Below are positions 1,776 through 7,580 of a DNA stretch of 32,000 bases, piece after piece. Location: positions 30,001 to 62,000 of the forward strand of contig NC_009483.1 in the NCBI RefSeq assembly GCF_000016745.1, in the 5' to 3' direction. How positions within the stretch are numbered: the stretch's first letter is position 1; each line of letters opens with the position of its first letter. The position numbers and the translations under genes are program-made. Origin of the DNA: Geotalea uraniireducens Rf4 (lineage in GTDB: Bacteria > Desulfobacterota > Desulfuromonadia > Geobacterales > Geobacteraceae). The notes below the pieces were generated by a model. It made no database searches, was not told where the DNA came from, and saw only the letters and a program-made list of their open reading frames with translations.

Positions 1776-1894
1776 CGCCGACTACCGACCGCCGACTGCC
1801 GACCGCCGACCGCCGACCGCCGACCGCCGACCGCCGACCGCCGACCGCCGACCGCCGACCGCCGACCGCCGACCGCCGACCGCCGACCGCCGTC
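1776..1894. repeat. tandem heptanucleotide array, about 17 x CGCCGAC (GTCGGCG on the transcribed minus strand)
   Basis: Counted directly. Units run in one 7-nt register from 1776; variant units TACCGAC, TGCCGAC, CGCCGTC. The last unit overlaps the U32 gene stop codon (1893-1895). Confidence 0.95.
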
Positions 1895-4271
1895 AAACCA
1901 ATCCCATCGTGAAATTGAACTCCGACGTTCCCGGTAATGCCGTGCCCCGGCTGAACGCGCCCAGTACCCTCCCCCACTCGTCCGGCGGTAGCTGGGAGAG
2001 ATCCATGACATATGAGGTGCCCCCCATTTCCTTGAGCCTCCCCTTAAAGGCGGTCAGGGAAAACATCGCGTTGGGGGTGACCACGGTGAGTCCGTCCCTG
2101 GTCGTGATCCGGTAGCCTTCGCCCCGGTCGGAGAGCACCGGCACGTCGCTGCGCACGTCCTTGATCCTGATCTTCGTGGTGATGGCCGGTACCGCGGAAT
2201 AGACCATGATCCGTCTTTTGATCGGCAGGTCTGCCGCCAGGAGCGCCGCTATGTTGTCGGAGTCGTCCTCGATATAAAGGGTGGCGGCGGTTGCTCCCAG
2301 CTCCTGCCAGCAGAGGAGCGCCTGGCTGTTGAGGGAAAAGAGCCGGTAATCGGTGGAGAGTTCTACGTCAAGCCCCTTGAGTAGCCCGAAGTGAGAGAGA
2401 TTGGCTGCCTCGAAGCGCCGGAAACCGTAATGCATGAGAACGGAGACGGCCTCCCTGAAGAAGGGGATCTCCGCCTCGAAGATGATGAACGGCAGATGCC
2501 AGATTACCTGCTGTTCGCGCCCCTTCAGCTTGCGCACGAAGAGCGGGATCTGGTGCATGTTGGCCTTTGACACCGGCAGGATGATGCTGTCGATGCTCTC
2601 CTGATGGAGCAGGTGGTAATCGCGGAGATGTTCGAGCCTCACCGCCAGTTCTTCCCGCTGGGGTCCCTTGACGGGGCGGCTGCCGACGAGCGCTGCCAGG
2701 GCCGATTTCCTGTGTTCCCGGCTCCGTTCCTTTATCTCGCCGAGCGCCTTGTCGCCAAGCCAGCGGTAGAATTCGCGGCGGATCTCCTTGAGCTGGGCGG
2801 CAGGAATCAGCACCGCCGGAAAATCGGGCGCATTCAGCGCGCTGAGGATGAAGGCAGTGTCGCCGGTCCGGCCGAACTGGGCGGCAAGCACACTTTCCAT
2901 GTCTGTGGTGCGCGCCGGTTCGAGAAGGCCCAAGTGAAATTCCCGGCATACTTCCTTTCCTGCCACTTGAGCCGTGATGCGCATGGTCTCGCCGATCAGG
3001 GCGAGGCTCAGCTCGCAGGGGAGCTTGTCTCCCTTTACCGTATCCAGCTTTTTTGCGCAGGCGTTCTCGCTCATGGTGAAGGCGGTTTCCGAGGAGACCT
3101 TGAAGACGGCGTCCCCTACCTTGAAGGGGAATGGTGACGAGGTAGTGACCAGGGATTTTTCCTTTGCCCCCTTCACCTGCTGTTTCCCCAGATAGAGTTC
3201 CTTGATGGTAAAGGCCCGGCCGGCCATGTCGCTCTTCGGCTGCACCCGCACCCGGTCCCCCACATGGAGCCGATCCTTGGTTTCAAAGGTGATCCGGTTG
3301 CCGTTCAGGGACTTTATCGTTCCGAGAAAGCGGCCGGTCGCCCCTTTGAGCGACGGGGTGGCGATGTCGGTCGGTGTGTGGGAGGCGAGGAACCCCTTGG
3401 TCGGCACCCGGCCGAAGGAGAGCTTCAGGAGTTCCTTGGCCTCGGCCACTGCCTCGCTGCGCTTGCCTTCCGGGGCATCCAGTACCAACCGGTAGGCCCC
3501 CACCACGCTCGCCACGTACTCGGCGGACTTCATCCGCCCCTCGATCTTCAGCGAGGCAACCTTTGCTTCGATCAGCTGCGGGATCATGTCGATGCTGGAA
3601 AAATCGTTGGTGGAGAAGTAGTACCCTTCCTTGCCCCGGTAGGTGTACTGCCTGCGACAGGGCTGGGCGCAACGCCCCCGGTTGCCGCTGTGGCCGCCGA
3701 GAAACGAGGAGAAATAGCATTGCCCGGAGAAGGAGAAGCAGAGGGCGCCATGGATGAAACACTCGATCTCGGCCCGGGATGCGGCAACGATGGCCTTGAT
3801 CTCGTCGATGTGCAGCTCGCGGGCCAGCACCACCCGCTCGAAGCCGAGCTCCTCCAGTTGTTTGACGCCGAGCGAATTGTGGATGGTCATCTGGGTCGAG
3901 GCGTGGAGCGGGATACCGGGGAAATGTTCACGGATCAGCCGGGCCGTTGCCATGTCCTGGAGGATCACCCCGTCGACCCGCATCCCCTCCAGGGCGGCGA
4001 GCAGGTCCACCAGCTGCGGCAGCTCGTTCTCCTTGATCAGGGTGTTGATGGTGACGTATAGCTTTCTTCCCTGGCAGTGGGCGTAGGCGAGCATCCGCTC
4101 CATCTGGGCGAGGGAGAAGTTCTTCGCCTTAGCCCGGGCGGAAAAATCGTGCAGGCCCGCATAGACGGCATCCGCCCCCTTTTCCATGGCGGCAAAGAAG
4201 GCCTCCAGCGACCCGGCCGGGGAGAGGAGTTCAGGCTTTTTCATGGTTTTGCTGATTATTGTTTTGGACAT
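1893..4271 (-). CDS. peptidase U32 family protein, long form (792 aa) with a C-terminal extension
   Basis: N-terminal KPELLSPAGSLEAFFAAMEKGADAVYAG, ASTQMTIHN, and the Cys-rich segment HGALCFSFSGQCYFSS...GNRGRCAQPCRR are typical U32 (collagenase-like, RlhA/TrhP/UbiU-V superfamily). Confidence 0.85.
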   Translation of the reverse strand: MSKTIISKTMKKPELLSPAGSLEAFFAAMEKGADAVYAGLHDFSARAKAKNFSLAQMERMLAYAHCQGRKLYVTINTLIKENELPQLVDLLAALEGMRVDGVILQDMATARLIREHFPGIPLHASTQMTIHNSLGVKQLEELGFERVVLARELHIDEIKAIVAASRAEIECFIHGALCFSFSGQCYFSSFLGGHSGNRGRCAQPCRRQYTYRGKEGYYFSTNDFSSIDMIPQLIEAKVASLKIEGRMKSAEYVASVVGAYRLVLDAPEGKRSEAVAEAKELLKLSFGRVPTKGFLASHTPTDIATPSLKGATGRFLGTIKSLNGNRITFETKDRLHVGDRVRVQPKSDMAGRAFTIKELYLGKQQVKGAKEKSLVTTSSPFPFKVGDAVFKVSSETAFTMSENACAKKLDTVKGDKLPCELSLALIGETMRITAQVAGKEVCREFHLGLLEPARTTDMESVLAAQFGRTGDTAFILSALNAPDFPAVLIPAAQLKEIRREFYRWLGDKALGEIKERSREHRKSALAALVGSRPVKGPQREELAVRLEHLRDYHLLHQESIDSIILPVSKANMHQIPLFVRKLKGREQQVIWHLPFIIFEAEIPFFREAVSVLMHYGFRRFEAANLSHFGLLKGLDVELSTDYRLFSLNSQALLCWQELGATAATLYIEDDSDNIAALLAADLPIKRRIMVYSAVPAITTKIRIKDVRSDVPVLSDRGEGYRITTRDGLTVVTPNAMFSLTAFKGRLKEMGGTSYVMDLSQLPPDEWGRVLGAFSRGTALPGTSEFNFTMGLV

Positions 4272-4798: not shown

Positions 4799-5287
4799 TC
4801 AGTGATTGCTTTCTTTCGACTTCCTTACCCGATGATGCCCCTTTTTCTTGGCGGCACCGGCAAGGGAGAGAATGTCGGACTGGGAAATGCGCCAGACGCC
4901 GTCTTCCTTTTGCAGCTTGAATGATCTGGTCGTATAGTCCGTGCCTGTTTGCCCGGCTTCAAAGCCGAGCTTTGCCCGCAGGGTAACGGTGCTGTCATTC
5001 CTTACGCTGACCTTGACTTCCTGCATTTTTTCCCAGCAACAGGCAGGTTTTCTGCTCGCCGAGGAAAGCTTTTTAGCGAATTGTTCCTTGCTGCTCCGTC
5101 CGCTCGCCATGGTCCGGGCGTAAAGCTCTTCGAACCTGCCATCGCGCCAGAGATCAAGGATCTCTTCAAAGCCCCGCTGCGACTCGGTCTGCAACTCCTC
5201 GGAGGACATATAAGGGGTCTTTGCCAGGGCAGGGAAAACGCTTGCCAGTGAAAGCATCAACGTGAGTACCAAGAGAACCTTGCGCAT
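4799..5287 (-). CDS. secreted hypothetical protein (162 aa)
   Basis: I trimmed ORF 4799..5473 to ATG 5287, which has a GGAGGAA Shine-Dalgarno 4 nt upstream. Signal peptide MRKVLLVLTLMLSLASVFPALA. The longer listed ORF merely reads through heptamer repeats. Confidence 0.6.
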   Translation of the reverse strand: MRKVLLVLTLMLSLASVFPALAKTPYMSSEELQTESQRGFEEILDLWRDGRFEELYARTMASGRSSKEQFAKKLSSASRKPACCWEKMQEVKVSVRNDSTVTLRAKLGFEAGQTGTDYTTRSFKLQKEDGVWRISQSDILSLAGAAKKKGHHRVRKSKESNH

Positions 5288-5355
5288 ACATTCCTCCGCT
5301 ACGTGAAATTCTGCCAATAATAGAGGAAAGACGGTTGCAGGGCAAGGGGAAAAAC

Positions 5356-5534
5356 GGTCGGCGGTCGTCAGTCGGTGGTCGGCGGTAAAACCACAAACAA
5401 TCGGCGGCCGGCGGTCGGCAGCCGGCGGTAAAACCCGACAACCAACCGCCAACCGCCACCTGCCACCTGCCACCTGCCACCTGCCACCTGCTGCCTGCCG
5501 ACTGCCGACTGCCGACTGCCGACTGCCGACCGCC
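5356..5534. repeat. composite inverted heptanucleotide arrays; probable long-stem terminator of the DAHP synthase gene
   Basis: GGTCGGC-type units at 5356-5383 and 5406-5426, each followed by GGTAAAACC. From 5448 to 5534 there are 12 in-register units (GCCAACC, 5 x GCCACCT, GCTGCCT, 4 x GCCGACT, GCCGACC), complementary to the first blocks. On the minus strand the array starts 2 nt after the stop (5537-5539) and ends in GTTTTTCCCC. Confidence 0.9.
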
Positions 5535-5536
5535 TT

Positions 5537-6556
5537 TTACAGCTCCCTCTCCGCTGCCTCGGCGAAGAGCCGCAGTTGGGCCATCATCCTTGCGAACTTG
5601 GCGGGCTTCAACGACTGCGGTCCGTCGGAGGAGGCGTGTTCCGGGTCGGGGTGCACCTCGATGATCAGGCCGTCGGCCCCGGCAGCCACGGCGGCGTAAG
5701 CCATGGGGGCAACATAGTGGTAGTTGCCGGTGCCGTGGGAGGGGTCGGCGATAATCGGCAGGTGGGTTTTTTCCTTCAGCACCGGGATCGCAGACAGGTC
5801 GAGGGTGTTGCGGGTGGCGGTCTCGAAGGTGCGGATGCCGCGTTCGCAGAGAATCACCGACTGATTCCCCTCGCTCATGATGTATTCGGCACTCATGAGG
5901 AATTCCTGGATGGTCATGGACATGCCGCGTTTCAGGAGAACAGCTTTTTTCAACTGGCCGACCTTTTTCAGCAGGGCGAAGTTCTGGGCGTTGCGCGCTC
6001 CGATTTGGAGGATGTCCGCATATTCGGCTACCAGTTCGGCGGTTTCCGGGTTGACCACCTCGGTGACGATGGGGAGACCGGTAAGGTCTCGGGCCTTGGC
6101 CAGGAGCTTCAGCCCTTCCTCTTCGAGCCCCTGGAACGAATAAGGGGAAGTGCGCGGTTTGAACGCCCCGCCGCGCAGTACATGGGCTCCCGCTTCCTTC
6201 ACCGCCATTGCGGAGGCGATGATCTGTTCCTCGCTTTCAACCGAACAGGGCCCGGCCATGACGATGAGCTGCTTGCCGCCGATGCTCAGCGTGTCGGTGA
6301 TGGGAATGATGCTCGACTCCTTCTTCACTTCCTTTGAGGCCAGCTTGTAGGGCTGGAGGATTGGCACCACGTTCTCCACCCCGTGCATGGATTCGATGGA
6401 CTGTAGTACCGCTTTCCCCCGTTCGTCGCCGACCGCGCCGATTACGTCCCGTGTGGCGCCGTGAATCACATGGGGCTTGTACCCCAGTTCCTTGATCCGC
6501 TTTAATACCTCGTCCTTGTCCTTTTTTACCGCCCCTGCTTTCATGACAATGATCAT
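5537..6556 (-). CDS. aroF: 3-deoxy-7-phosphoheptulonate (DAHP) synthase, type I-beta, with an N-terminal ferredoxin-like regulatory domain
   Basis: Catalytic core motifs ([37 protein letters not shown]) match the KDO8PS-related DAHPS. An extra domain of about 75 aa resembles the Thermotoga-type enzyme. I chose ATG 6556 (MIIVMKAG), which has an AAGGAGAG Shine-Dalgarno. Confidence 0.9.
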
Positions 6557-6586
6557 CCCTTTCTCTCCTTTTTTTCCGAAACGCAA

Positions 6587-6675
6587 AAGGCCGGAGGATT
6601 GCCCCCCGGCCTTGATAATTTGTTGTGCAAAAAACGAAAAAGCCGGGGGTCGGTATCCTGTCCACCCTCGGCTTT
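6587..6675 (-). promoter_or_regulatory. attenuator: two terminator-like hairpins with an alternative antiterminator pairing
   Basis: Hairpin A: AAAGCCGAGGGT (6675-6664) pairs with ACCCCCGGCTTT (6650-6639), then TTCGTTTTTTG. Hairpin B: AAGGCCGGGGG (6613-6603) pairs with CCTCCGGCCTT (6597-6587), then TTGCGTTT. The 3' arm of A pairs with the 5' arm of B (11 bp including one G-U). Confidence 0.65.
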
Positions 6676-6704
6676 CGGTTTATTAGTTAAGTTACAGCTC
6701 TTGC

Positions 6705-6797
6705 CTAATTCGAACCTCCACCCTGGGCAGACGGCCTAAAATAAAAGCCGCACCAAAAGTAAAAATTAAAAAAGGCGAAATAGCTGGTGTTAATCAT
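6705..6797 (-). CDS. aromatic-rich leader peptide (30 aa) MINTSYFAFFNFYFWCGFYFRPSAQGGGSN
   Basis: Hand translation of the minus strand; too short for the ORF track. Eleven of residues 6-20 are aromatic (7 Phe, 3 Tyr, 1 Trp). It lies 30 nt upstream of hairpin A and 149 nt upstream of the aroF start. No Shine-Dalgarno is visible. Confidence 0.65.
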   Translation of the reverse strand: MINTSYFAFFNFYFWCGFYFRPSAQGGGSN

Positions 6798-6804
6798 GGT
6801 TGTT

Positions 6805-6834
6805 ATATTTGCTGATTTTATCCGAACATGTCAA
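6805..6834 (-). promoter_or_regulatory. candidate sigma70-type promoter for the leader/aroF transcript
   Basis: TTGACA (6834-6829), 18-nt spacer, AAATAT (6810-6805). This places the transcription start at or next to the leader ATG. The -10 match is weak. Confidence 0.3.
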
Positions 6835-7019
6835 GCACTTTCTTGAAGATGACATTTCGGTCACGGGCTTTTGGGTGAAGGAACGTCTGGAAAGGTGGTC
6901 TGATGAGGCTCGTACAGCGTAATTAAAGCAAAACGGATTGACATGGTTTTCTGTTATATGTTAGTAACTTAGAACTCATTTGACCAGGATTGCAATACGC
7001 TGAAAAGGAGGAGAAAAGA

Positions 7020-7580
7020 TTGTTTAGTGATTTATGCAATAGAAGAACCTTTCTCAAAACTTCGCTACTGGGAGCCTTGGTGCTCTGCAGCGGCATGCCT
7101 GCCTTTGCCAAAGTGCCGATCGAAGAACAACTTCCGGAAGGGAAGCTTTCGCTCTACAACACCCATAACAGCGAGAGGCTTACCATAACCTACCGCAACG
7201 CTGCAGGAGATTACGATATCGGGGCTATCAATGCCCTTAACTGGATACTCCGCTGCCACTATACGCAGCAGGTGGCGGACATGGATGTCCGGGTCATCGA
7301 GTACCTCAATCTGGTGGACAAAAGGCTCGGGGGAAATAATGAAATCCACATCATTTCCGGGTACCGGTCGCCGGTGTATAATTCACTGCTCCGGCAGGAA
7401 GGGCGGCACGTTGCCAAGCACAGCCTGCATCTGAAGGGAAAGGCCATCGATATCGCCATTCCCGGGATAGGCCTGGATCGTGTGCGGCATACCGCACTGA
7501 ACCTGCGTTACGGCGGAGTCGGTTATTATCCGAAGACCGGCTTTGTCCACGTGGATTCCGGTAATTTCCGTGCCTGGTAG
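7020..7580 (+). CDS. Tat-exported DUF882 / peptidase M15A (YcbK/MepK-like) protein
   Basis: Twin-arginine signal NRRTFLKTSLLGALVL. Motifs SGYRSPVYN, HLKGKAIDI, GGVGYYPKTGFVHVDSG..RAW. I chose TTG 7020, 6-7 nt after AAGGAGGAG; the track ORF starts at 6990. Confidence 0.8.
   Translation: MFSDLCNRRTFLKTSLLGALVLCSGMPAFAKVPIEEQLPEGKLSLYNTHNSERLTITYRNAAGDYDIGAINALNWILRCHYTQQVADMDVRVIEYLNLVDKRLGGNNEIHIISGYRSPVYNSLLRQEGRHVAKHSLHLKGKAIDIAIPGIGLDRVRHTALNLRYGGVGYYPKTGFVHVDSGNFRAW

Follow-up and report, generated by a model that had tools for sequence, protein, structure and literature searches.

The aroF locus and its leader ORF

We analyzed a 32,000-nucleotide stretch of Geotalea uraniireducens Rf4 DNA (referred to here as the window), whose minus strand carries a gene (aroF) for a type I-beta DAHP synthase, preceded by a short unannotated open reading frame (ORF), two hairpins each followed by a U-rich tract, and a promoter-like sequence (Table 1). 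The encoded enzyme is identical to WP_011936974.1 of G. uraniireducens; its residues 1 to 68 match the Pfam family DAHP_snth_FXD, followed by a match to DAHP_synth_1, and its reading frame begins at an ATG at 6556, with GGAG at 6568 to 6565 as the Shine-Dalgarno sequence. The upstream neighboring gene is divergent (6990 to 7580, plus strand), and the two hairpins, A and B, are thus not terminators of another gene. Allosteric feedback through the N-terminal ferredoxin-like domain is established for the type I-beta enzyme of Thermotoga maritima and, by analogy, would add a second layer of control in G. uraniireducens to any exerted through the leader.

Table 1. Features of the aroF leader region, in coordinates of the window
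Feature	Position	Strand	Basis or properties
-35 element TTGACA	6829..6834	-	CTTGACA columns near-invariant in a 36-sequence alignment
Putative -10 hexamer AAATAT, weak in the window	6805..6810	-	Position from ATG-aligned profile of relatives
Leader peptide ORF, 30 codons plus TAG	6705..6797	-	Unannotated; probably translated from a 5'-terminal AUG
Regulatory aromatic codon block, codons 6 to 20, YFAFFNFYFWCGFYF	6738..6782	-	11 of 15 residues aromatic
Segment 1, CGGCUU, 5' side of small leader hairpin 1:2	6745..6750	-	RNAalifold consensus helix
Segment 2, antiterminator strand, AGGCCG (pairs with segment 1) plus GUCUGCCC at 6732 to 6725	6725..6737	-	Covariation
Hairpin A, segments 3 and 4, predicted first terminator	6639..6675	-	-20.5 kcal/mol; tail UUCGUUUUUU
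U-rich tract after hairpin A, UUUUUCGUUUUUU	6629..6641	-	Sequence and cross-species hairpin calls
Hairpin B, segments 5 and 6, predicted second terminator with a putative fail-safe role	6587..6613	-	12 pairs, -21 kcal/mol; tail UUGCGUUU
U-rich tail of hairpin B, UUGCGUUUC	6578..6586	-	Terminator scan and cross-species calls
Type I-beta DAHP synthase gene (aroF), N-terminal ferredoxin-like regulatory domain	5537..6556	-	Pfam DAHP_snth_FXD and DAHP_synth_1

The leader ORF (6797 to 6705) translates as MINTSYFAFFNFYFWCGFYFRPSAQGGGSN, in which residues 6 to 20 include seven Phe, three Tyr, and one Trp. We compared this density with that of 497 ORFs of at least 15 amino acids and of 44,260 stop-free, six-frame, 15-residue windows, all from the 32-kb window, and found that the leader ORF is the sole place where more than seven residues of 15 are aromatic, a density far beyond chance. 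Translation and the six-frame count together bear out the original prediction of a 30-codon, aromatic-rich ORF on the minus strand. Among 37 Geobacteraceae-type leaders the ORF length is conserved at 26 to 33 codons, with average contents of 6.5 Phe and 2.9 Tyr and with exactly one Trp in each leader. Across the relatives there is an F-Y-F-W-x-G-F-Y-F block, eight positions of which are 68 to 100% aromatic, with Gly as the ninth, and the Phe codons at W-1 and W+5 have entropies of about 0 at their first two positions and of 0.8 to 0.94 at the third; this third-position variation is a coding signature. The aromatic positions are shuffled from species to species, and the N-terminal half of the peptide conserves composition alone. 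The leader peptide has no entry in the public protein collection, and four representative leader peptides have no match among the Pfam and NCBIfam HMMs at E values up to 10.

A consensus promoter scan of the window found no promoter, because the -10 hexamer is weak there, and the promoter was recovered from cross-species conservation alone. The -10 region of the relatives resembles TG-n-TTTAAT, and the distance from the end of the -35 element to the leader ATG is 30 to 32 nt in about 33 of 37 relatives. In the ATG-aligned profile the hexamer occupies positions -13 to -8, with T at -8 in 24 of 33 sequences, TG at -16/-15, and C at -1, directly before the leader ATG, in 27 of 33. This conserved geometry puts +1 on the AUG, so that transcription likely begins at or next to its A (6797), and it suggests that a leader transcript made from a sigma-70-type promoter is translated leaderlessly, on the assumption that leaderless translation is efficient in Geobacteraceae. 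No Shine-Dalgarno sequence precedes the leader ATG, and the fixed spacing agrees with the earlier proposal that a leaderless leader peptide is possible.

Predicted terminators between the leader ORF and aroF

We number the segments of the proposed relay from 1 to 6, segment 1 being the CGGCUU within the aromatic codons, segment 2 the AGGCCG plus GUCUGCCC, segments 3 and 4 the arms of hairpin A, and segments 5 and 6 the arms of hairpin B. Folding placed A and B, each with its U-rich tract, exactly where they had been predicted, and both candidate intrinsic terminators, whose function is predicted, sit between the leader ORF and aroF. Hairpin A is imperfect, with one A.C mismatch, one bulge, and an 8-nt loop, and it was not picked by a simple terminator scan of the window, for which hairpin B is the sole terminator-like site.

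Hairpin A was found in all 36 relatives, with energies from -16 to -30 kcal/mol and with differing stem sequences (GCCG/CGGC, ACCGG/CCGGU, and CCAYGG/CCGUGG). An automated hairpin call gives at least five U residues within 8 nt past the last G-C pair of A in 25 of the 36 relatives, although some of its low counts are artifacts, the detector having mis-called A in leaders L004, L010, L019, and L022 by merging it with the downstream hairpin; in the Geomonas-type leaders L012, L013, and L018, hairpin A is genuinely without a U-tract. On alignment A1 hairpin A is just 77% paired, because MAFFT misaligns the 5' arms of the window type and of the L009 type by one column, and support for A is taken from per-sequence folds and not from A1 column counts. 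Hairpin B is 92% paired on the alignment, with nine pairs changed on both sides. In many relatives other bases break up its U-rich tail (as in UGUUUGUGGG), which makes its strength as a terminator variable. In the distant lineages the predicted terminators are strong and canonical, with U-tracts and with energies of -20 to -36 kcal/mol.

These features bear on an improbable alternative, in which the switch would not act mainly by intrinsic termination but through polarity that depends on Rho and sets in beyond the leader stop codon, or through aroF translation or mRNA stability by way of hairpin B and the long 3:6/4:5 pairings. The interrupted tail of B and the Geomonas-type leaders without a U-tract after A would fit such a switch, as would the 4:5 plus 3:6 structure that the full-length RNA adopts and an anti-Shine-Dalgarno-like CCUCC within the 3' arm of B. 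However, the U-tracts that follow A in the 25 relatives called automatically (several of the low counts being mis-called), the canonical terminators of the distant lineages, and an aroF Shine-Dalgarno sequence that is unpaired in the predicted folds all argue against it, and we prefer intrinsic termination at A, with B probably acting as a fail-safe.

Alternative helices and the leader-to-terminator link

The small leader hairpin 1:2 lies at A1 columns 123-126/136-139 of the RNAalifold consensus, where it is 94% paired; in the window it extends to a hairpin spanning 6775 to 6703 with an energy of -26 kcal/mol. RNAalifold also chose, unprompted, a 2:3 consensus helix in which GUCUGCCC in the leader ORF pairs with GGGUGGAC (6667 to 6660) in the 5' arm of hairpin A. 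This antiterminator helix has eight pairs, with 97.6% of cells paired and four pairs changed on both sides, and its extended duplex (6735 to 6712 with 6681 to 6656) reaches -25.9 kcal/mol; a complementary GGG[CU][AG]GAC lies 29 to 63 nt downstream of the octamer in almost all lineages. The second alternative helix, 4:5, joins the 3' arm of A to the 5' arm of B over 11 bp (6649 to 6639 with 6613 to 6603; -23.5 kcal/mol). It forms part of the minimum-energy structure predicted for the entire leader (z = -3.9 relative to 200 shuffles), the full-length RNA folding as 4:5 plus 3:6, and on the alignment it is 92.6% paired, with five pairs changed on both sides. The mutually exclusive pairing of these two arms had been predicted from the window, and it both forms as described and covaries in relatives; compensatory changes were thus found in the stem of B as well as in this one.

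When 2:3 and 4:5 are taken together, 94.7% of cells are paired, as against 44 to 62% with slid partners, and nine pairs are changed on both sides; on all five measures used, every one of 500 shuffles falls short of the real value. The termination helices are likewise supported on the alignment. Mean energies across species are -10.5 kcal/mol for 1:2, -22.8 for 2:3 (z -3.2), -22.6 for A, -20.8 for 4:5 (z -2.8), and -22.9 for B.

The original prediction had connected the leader to hairpin A differently, through CGGCUUUU (6750 to 6743) inside the ORF and GAAAGCCG (6676 to 6669) in the 5' arm of A. That this pair is the operative antiterminator of the same attenuator is very improbable. Its complementarity is present in the window over 8 bp, with an extended duplex of -13.8 kcal/mol, and it is seen in folds with a ribosome near the stop codon if ribosome-spanning pairs are allowed, but it is not conserved, with a mean z of -0.8 against shuffles in 36 species, many of them at or above 0, and it is much weaker than the covarying 2:3 helix. 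It would also have the wrong logic, because the CGGCUUUU strand lies under the stalled ribosome and is unavailable just when antitermination is needed. We therefore rejected this pair; the real link is GUCUGCCC:GGGUGGAC.

Ribosome position and the proposed mechanism

Folding with ribosome masking gave different outcomes at equilibrium and in nascent RNA. With a masked ribosome and the whole of terminator A present, equilibrium folding revealed no effect of ribosome position, and the terminator probability was about 0.9 throughout. Because hairpin A wins at equilibrium at every ribosome position once its 3' arm is present, the switch must be kinetic, as in trp. In the nascent-RNA model, in which the transcript stops short of the 3' arm of A and no pair may span the ribosome, a ribosome on the aromatic codons leads to capture of the 5' arm of A with a probability of about 0.83 in 36 of 36 species, and this falls to about 0.04 in the same species once the ribosome has come to about codon 20 or beyond, or to the stop codon. 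The expectation that a stalled ribosome favors the antiterminator was therefore borne out in nascent RNA but not at equilibrium.

The antiterminator is free to form when the ribosomal A site is on codons 2 to 18 or 19. The conserved F-Y-F codons 18 to 20 are at the edge of the zone in which segment 2 is masked, and capture probability drops there from 0.8 to 0.6 to 0.4. With the ribosome at the stop codon of the window leader, GUCUGCCC is physically out of reach; if ribosome-spanning pairs are permitted in the window, the 5' arm of A remains open to pairing with the aromatic arm. In nascent RNA with no ribosome, capture probability is 0.03 for the window, and across species about half already favor the antiterminator (median P of 0.74). 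Thus 1:2 is strong in G. uraniireducens, and in L009-type species 2:3 prevails with no ribosome present. As 1:2 is generally weak, and the antiterminator is preferred without a ribosome in about half of the species, termination in these would need a ribosome over segment 2, and such ribosome-dependent rather than 1:2-dependent termination would, according to the folding model, depart from textbook trp logic.

We observe in silico the ORF and its conservation, the alternative helices and their covariation, and a dependence of folding on ribosome position, and we consider it likely that the DAHP synthase gene of G. uraniireducens is under the control of a transcription attenuator of the ribosome-mediated, leader-peptide kind. 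Attenuation of the pheL/trpL/hisL type, as first proposed, is thus supported by a conserved aromatic ORF, by covarying alternative helices, and by ribosome-position folds in 36 species. In the mechanism that we propose, transcription would start from the sigma-70-type promoter with its -35 element at 6834 to 6829, at or adjoining the first nucleotide of the leader AUG. With Phe-, Tyr-, and Trp-tRNAs charged, the ribosome would traverse segment 2 to the stop codon and leave segment 3 free, so that hairpin A (3:4) could form ahead of its U-tract and terminate the polymerase; polymerases escaping A would meet hairpin B (5:6). When aromatic aminoacyl-tRNA is scarce, the ribosome would stall in the Phe/Tyr/Trp block (codons 6 to 19) and expose segment 2, which could capture segment 3 (GUCUGCCC:GGGUGGAC, up to about -26 kcal/mol) while segment 4 has yet to be transcribed, pre-empting A; the released segment 4 would then pair with segment 5 and pre-empt terminator B, and transcription would continue into aroF. 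The model predicts that altering GUCUGCCC to GUGUCCCC would give constitutive termination, undone by a compensatory change in GGGUGGAC.

Distribution of the leader and conservation of its RNA core

An equivalent upstream aromatic ORF is present in 56 of 80 relatives of the DAHP synthase gene (36 of Geobacteraceae type and 20 more distant), as would be expected of the conserved ORF that the original prediction had envisaged; its carriers are Geobacteraceae, other Desulfuromonadales, Syntrophales-like lineages, and Methylomirabilota/Rokubacteria. We trained a covariance model on the Geobacteraceae leaders and searched the window and the relatives with it. The model has a single match in the window (6760 to 6633; 102 bits), and its matches in the relatives are directly upstream of the DAHP synthase gene, weak reverse-strand echoes excepted. 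Syntrophales-type leaders are matched with E values of 5e-8 to 3e-4, and those of Methylomirabilota/Rokubacteria marginally, at 0.04 to 0.25; RNA homology to the latter, suggested by the shared octamer, its partner, and the architecture, is not statistically secure.

The frame in which the octamer GUCUGCCC is read differs by lineage, giving P-S-A, V-C-P/V-R-P, or R-L-P, so that all three frames are used, and enrichment for aromatic codons is kept where the frame relative to the RNA core differs. It follows from the use of all three frames that the conserved ...GFYFRPSA tail is a by-product of RNA conservation, not of peptide conservation. In the Geobacteraceae-type alignment the wobble positions of CCG UCU GCC in the leader are nearly invariant, and coding-level selection within the leader ORF is limited to the aromatic codons.

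The strong sequence-level conservation of the RNA core across lineages could also point to an RNA that senses a ligand or a protein, as a riboswitch, T-box, or TRAP-like target would, and in which the aromatic ORF is incidental, a reading that we regard as highly improbable. The element is a set of simple alternative hairpins in which neither a junction nor a pocket is conserved, conservation extends to the ATG and to its distance from the promoter, and the retention of aromatic codons in differing frames is explained by translation-based sensing only. Further, an Rfam cmscan of 6300 to 7200, with E values up to 10, returned five unrelated chance matches, all far below gathering scores, with none to Phe_leader, Trp_leader, His_leader, Leu_leader, Thr_leader, leu-phe_leader, Bacteroid-trp, or any other leader family. 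A functional small aromatic or hydrophobic peptide coexpressed with aroF, with the hairpins as ordinary terminators or insulators, is extremely improbable: the FW.GFYFRPSA motif looks conserved among Geobacteraceae, but its tail is encoded in three frames by lineage, giving unrelated residues, its invariant wobble positions mark an RNA constraint, the N-terminal half has kept composition only, and the peptide has no family match.

Translation-dependent attenuation thus remains the preferred reading, and the leader most likely acts as a classical ribosome-stalling switch, a familiar mode of control in an RNA family for which we found no earlier description. A more far-reaching proposal, to which we give slightly less than an even chance, is that this is an undescribed cross-phylum RNA family. 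Its members would guard the type I-beta DAHP synthase gene of Geobacteraceae, of other Desulfuromonadales, and of Syntrophales-like lineages, and probably also that of Methylomirabilota/Rokubacteria. The leader peptide, truly leaderless and with its AUG at the 5' end, would report jointly on how far the tRNAs for Phe, Tyr, and Trp are charged, one stalled ribosome would disarm two serial terminators through a palindrome-cored relay of arms, the RNA core (GUCUGCCC with GGGCAGAC), being read in all three frames in different lineages, would predate every individual leader ORF, and ribosome loading at the 5' end would synchronize transcription and translation in place of a pause hairpin. If correct, entry into aromatic amino acid synthesis would be controlled at the RNA level, atop allosteric feedback, in Geobacter-type metal reducers and in several poorly studied phyla. 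The leader RNA could readily be proposed as a new Rfam family, and an unannotated small ORF is thereby identified in dozens of genomes. We note that it also illustrates a common trap, in that the seeming micropeptide motif GFYFRPSA is an RNA helix read in one of three frames.

Relationship to known attenuators

Leader-peptide attenuation has been a textbook class of mechanism since trp, and the proposed aroF attenuator overturns no concept. Like pheL, trpL, and hisL of Escherichia coli, it has a leader ORF containing regulatory codons and has antiterminator and terminator helices that exclude each other, and it would work by kinetic pre-emption. In hisL the pairings A:B, C:D, and E:F alternate with B:C and D:E, an arrangement that the present relay (1:2, 3:4, and 5:6 versus 2:3 and 4:5) resembles. 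Unlike these three, the aroF leader is predicted to sense three amino acids and to control a common first enzyme rather than a terminal branch; its middle hairpin, A, bears a U-tract, which yields two predicted serial terminators; it has no Shine-Dalgarno sequence; and its 1:2 hairpin is weak, so that in many species readthrough may be the default for a leader that is not translated. Full-text literature searches gave no description of the element for Geobacter or Deltaproteobacteria, although an earlier computational listing is possible in attenuator surveys, such as those of Vitreschak in 2004, Merino and Yanofsky in 2005, and Lopatovskaya and Naville and Gautheret, both in 2010. The suggestion that this attenuator was new therefore stands for Geobacter, where we found no description, and not for the concept, which is known from aroR-aroF of Corynebacterium glutamicum and from the leaderless peptides of Deinococcus.

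The C. glutamicum aroF product is of a different DAHP synthase class from the type I-beta enzyme considered here. Its gene is attenuated through the aromatic leader peptide aroR (Neshat 2014, in PMC11802643), which, in the account given there, is a short leader with Phe-Tyr-Phe, located upstream of the operon that includes the DAHP synthase gene, at whose aromatic codons stalling raises transcription (PMC11802643). As far as that account goes, the regulatory idea and the pathway entry step are the same in the two systems, a functional analogy, but aroR belongs to another phylum, is much shorter, and is reported to contain Phe and Tyr only, whereas the present leader has 11 aromatic codons including an invariant Trp. 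Neither a two-terminator relay nor leaderless translation, both of which are predicted here, is among the features reported for C. glutamicum aroR-aroF in the account consulted (PMC11802643). The Merino database has predicted attenuators ahead of aroA-I-beta in Thermus and Thermoanaerobacter (listed in PMC1173090), which, like the present leader, place a terminator and antiterminator upstream of the same DAHP synthase class; unlike it, the entries as listed there have no leader peptide and no comparative support, and none is from Geobacter (PMC1173090).

Leaderless leader peptides have been described in Deinococcus deserti (PMC4007540). The leaderless leaders of Deinococcus and mycobacteria and the present one share a start codon at the 5' end of the transcript (a predicted position in the aroF leader), no Shine-Dalgarno sequence, and predicted attenuation of amino acid genes. 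Those of mycobacteria are Cys-rich upstream ORFs. Start sites in Deinococcus and mycobacteria were mapped by RNA-seq, whereas that of the aroF leader is deduced from conserved promoter geometry only. Leaderless mRNAs are widely used in Deinococcus and mycobacteria; to our knowledge, such wide use is not known for Geobacteraceae. If the 5' end is confirmed on the AUG, leaderless leader-peptide attenuation would extend beyond Deinococcus and Actinobacteria, and the aroF leader would offer a compact natural system for the coupling of a 5'-loaded ribosome to RNA polymerase.

An aromatic-rich leader peptide conserved upstream of DAHP synthase genes

Read computationally, the region upstream of aroF is very probably a ribosome-mediated attenuator that senses aromatic aminoacyl-tRNA supply. 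A conserved ORF, covarying helices and the dependence of folding on ribosome position bear out this part of the original prediction; its proposed pairing of the leader ORF with hairpin A gives way to a different helix, designated 2:3. The aromatic-rich ORF is present as described (seven Phe, three Tyr and one Trp at residues 6 to 20), and its aromatic density is far beyond chance for this DNA: scoring 44,260 stop-free 15-residue stretches in six frames of the window, together with 497 ORFs no shorter than 15 aa, placed all counts above 7 per 15 residues in this ORF, with a maximum of 7 elsewhere. The peptide is absent from a collection of 15 billion proteins, and neither it nor the related leader peptides match Pfam or NCBIfam models. 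With Pfam domains DAHP_snth_FXD and DAHP_synth_1, the aroF protein is a type I-beta DAHP synthase that has an N-terminal ferredoxin-like domain; in sequence it is the same as WP_011936974.1 from Geotalea uraniireducens, a species formerly placed in Geobacter. Because the upstream neighbor is divergently transcribed, hairpins A and B are not terminators of another gene. This neighbor and a DUF3656-containing protein of the peptidase U32 family (1893-4271, minus) lie outside the aromatic pathway, and aroF therefore appears to be regulated alone here.

Table. Features of the aroF leader region (window positions)
Feature	Position	Strand	Remarks
DUF882/peptidase M15 protein	6990-7580	+	upstream neighbor, divergent from leader
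-35 TTGACA	6834-6829	-	
Predicted -10 AAATAT	6810-6805	-	weak
Leader peptide ORF	6797-6705	-	MINTSYFAFFNFYFWCGFYFRPSAQGGGSN
Helix 2:3	6732-6725 with 6667-6660	-	extendable to 6735-6712 with 6681-6656, -25.9 kcal/mol
Hairpin A (3:4)	6675-6639	-	about -20.5 kcal/mol; then UUCGUUUUUU
Hairpin B (5:6)	6613-6587	-	about -21 kcal/mol; then UUGCGUUU
aroF start	ATG 6556	-	GGAG at 6568-6565

Among 80 retrieved loci encoding DAHP synthase relatives, all of the Geobacteraceae-type loci with enough upstream DNA (L001-L033, L036, L038 and L043) have an ATG-initiated ORF of 26 to 33 codons ending 130 to 200 nt upstream of the DAHP synthase start, with the common core F-x-F-W-x-G-F-Y-F-R-P-S-A. Aromatic-rich upstream ORFs are also found at 20 more distant loci, from other Desulfuromonadales, Syntrophales-like Thermodesulfobacteriota and Methylomirabilota/Rokubacteria, so that the short ORF expected in relatives is kept at 36 Geobacteraceae-type and 20 distant loci. 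On average, a Geobacteraceae-type leader has 6.5 Phe and 2.9 Tyr, and each one has exactly one Trp; Trp is present in 15 and Tyr in 17 of the 20 distant leaders. Aromatic positions shift between species, TTT/TTC and TAT/TAC swap, and the Phe codons on either side of Trp are almost fixed at positions 1 and 2 and free at the third (entropy, 0.8-0.94): the block behaves as coding sequence selected for codon identity. At two Methylomirabilota-like loci, DNA ahead of the DAHP synthase start (from about 240 to 25 nt in L047, about 325 to 110 nt in L048) codes for the C terminus of a second DAHP-synthase-like protein (...DPSHGTG.WEYV...GADGL.IEVH...), which suggests tandem paralogous genes and not a leader.

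The leader tail forms an RNA helix

Wobble positions included, the segment 3' of the aromatic block (GGC UUU UAU UUU AGG CCG UCU GCC C) hardly varies, which argues for constraint on the RNA. The RNAalifold consensus of 36 leaders contains three helices. Two are hairpins, B and the small 1:2 (CGGCU/AGGCCG); in the third, helix 2:3, GUCUGCCC pairs with GGG[C/U][A/G]GAC of the hairpin A 5' arm. Compensatory changes in helix 2:3 are seen in Geomonas (GUCGCCCC:GGGGUGGC) and in two further leaders, L027 (GUCCACCC:GGGUGGAC) and L043 (GCCUGCCC:GGGUAGGC). The reading frame is what decides the matter: across lineages the leader ORF reads the segment 2 octamer in each of the three frames, as Pro-Ser-Ala (35 leaders), as Val-Cys-Pro or Val-Arg-Pro (13), or as Arg-Leu-Pro (4). 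In almost all leaders the complement of the octamer is 29 to 63 nt downstream, in the terminator 5' arm. The apparent micropeptide motif is thus a by-product of the antiterminator, and aromatic codon content is the sole conserved coding feature.

Hairpins A and B, predicted with U-rich tails, are both found, although a simple terminator scan picked up only B and missed the imperfect hairpin A. The 11-bp pairing of the A 3' arm with the B 5' arm (4:5), proposed as mutually exclusive with the hairpins, has an energy of -23.5 kcal/mol in the window, and the full leader contains it in its minimum-energy fold (z = -3.9). We counted pairs on an alignment of the 36 Geobacteraceae-type leaders, with partners slid by one to three columns and 500 shuffles as controls. 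Helices 2:3 and 4:5, together the antitermination structure, have standard pairs in 94.7% of cells, compared with 44-62% for slid partners, with changes on both sides at nine pairs, and no shuffle was as high as observed on any of five measures, including two that seldom yield false positives. The termination structure has support as well: hairpin B is 92% paired, also with nine pairs changed on both sides. Hairpin A is only 77% paired because MAFFT misregisters two sequence classes; folded sequence by sequence, it is found in every species, at -16 to -30 kcal/mol. Mean energies (in kcal/mol) are -10.5 for 1:2, -22.8 for 2:3, -22.6 for A, -20.8 for 4:5 and -22.9 for B, with shuffle z values of -3.2 for 2:3 and -2.8 for 4:5. 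The antiterminator originally proposed, CGGCUUUU with GAAAGCCG, can form in this genome, but we rejected it, as it is not above shuffles across the family (mean z, -0.8) and lies beneath the stalled ribosome.

Ribosome position and the predicted relay

When the A 3' arm is present, hairpin A wins at equilibrium for all ribosome positions, and any antiterminator must therefore work by kinetic pre-emption, as in trp. Nascent RNA was folded up to just before this arm, with the ribosome footprint masked codon by codon. With the A site on aromatic codons, to about codon 18-19, the probability that segment 2 captures the A 5' arm is ∼0.83 (36 of 36 species); it drops to ∼0.04 once the ribosome is at about codon 20 or beyond, and likewise at the stop codon. 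Without a ribosome, capture is 0.03 in the window, where 1:2 lengthens into a hairpin of -26 kcal/mol, and the median over species is 0.74; termination in many relatives would thus need a ribosome on segment 2 and not 1:2, a departure from the textbook scheme. Distant lineages have the same switch, with strong canonical terminators.

Capture of segment 3 by segment 2 would leave segment 4 free to pair with segment 5, and, because these are complementary, a single stalled ribosome would disarm both hairpins. We consider the specific relay, 2:3 and then 4:5, likely. Polymerase leaking past a properly formed A could meet a second chance to terminate when B forms, a putative fail-safe. In three Geomonas-type leaders (L012, L013 and L018), A is without a U-tract (tails such as CGAAGCUGAU), and the good U-tract is that of B (UUUUCGCUUU). 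The opposite is true of L009-type leaders, with a perfect terminator at A and an interrupted tail at B. The pattern fits a conserved relay with the terminator role open to either hairpin, a role that seems to have shifted between A and B during evolution. Tandem terminators are also present in Syntrophales-type L054 and L078, where a common CCAUGG core replaces CCGG. The A 5' arm can also pair with the B 3' arm and tail (6679-6655 with 6600-6575, -24.3 kcal/mol), so the full-length leader is predicted to end in a long 3:6 plus 4:5 structure, which may be relevant to stability or translation of readthrough transcripts.

Promoter and leaderless initiation

The CTTGACA motif is nearly invariant among leaders and ends 30 to 32 nt before the leader ATG in ∼33 of 37. 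In the ATG-aligned profile, a TTTAAT-like hexamer occupies -13 to -8 and is preceded by TG (-16/-15). Position -1, next to the A of ATG, is C in 27 of 33 leaders, and such a pyrimidine/purine step is the usual transcription start context. No Shine-Dalgarno sequence is present upstream of the leader ATG. From this geometry and the missing Shine-Dalgarno, the transcript most likely starts on the AUG, and leaderless initiation, raised originally as a possibility, is somewhat favored. A generic promoter scan of the window did not call the TTGACA/AAATAT pair. The 190-nt intergenic region is common to the leader promoter and the divergent DUF882/peptidase M15 gene. In Syntrophales-type L054 and L064, the first in-frame ATG of the 39-codon ORF follows TTGACA after only 21 nt; the true start is probably an internal ATG, and the promoter-to-ATG geometry may thus differ from that in Geobacteraceae.

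Phylogenetic range and relation to known systems

The window has one match (102 bits, at 6760-6633) to a covariance model from 31 Geobacteraceae-type leaders. Geobacteraceae leaders kept out of the model score 48 to 111 bits, other Desulfuromonadales have E values of ∼1e-7 to 1e-8, Syntrophales-type leaders 5e-8 to 3e-4, and the GC-rich Methylomirabilota/Rokubacteria leaders are marginal (0.04-0.25). All matches are directly upstream of a DAHP synthase gene, save three weak ones on the reverse strand that echo the palindromic core, and the family is phylogenetically wider than could be seen from the one sequence.

Leader-peptide attenuation has been textbook knowledge since trp, phe and his. 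Rfam 15 has no family match, even at E values up to 10, and a full-text literature search for Geobacter/Deltaproteobacteria found no description; an earlier computational listing in attenuator surveys of subscription journals is possible. The aromatic leader peptide aroR of Corynebacterium glutamicum attenuates the DAHP synthase gene aroF (Neshat 2014, as cited in PMC11802643). Deinococcus deserti has documented leaderless leader peptides (PMC4007540), and PMC1173090 gives generic attenuator predictions upstream of aroA-I-beta in Thermus and Thermoanaerobacter. This kind of system is thus known, and its attractive features each have precedent; the finding is solid and useful, no surprise to a specialist, and well suited both to proposal as an Rfam family and to experiments.

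Heptanucleotide tandem arrays are crowded into a patchwork (5355-5534) that follows directly on the aroF stop codon (5537), including, on the plus strand, GCCACCT x6.4, CTGCCGA x5.7, CGGTCGG x4.6 and CGGCGGC x3.9, with a 21-nt super-period in part; the repeated MAGGRW... strings among window ORFs are a product of these arrays. The next ORF after aroF (4799-5473, minus) has no Pfam match, and its likely true start, MRKVLLVLTLMLSLASVFPALA..., resembles a signal peptide.
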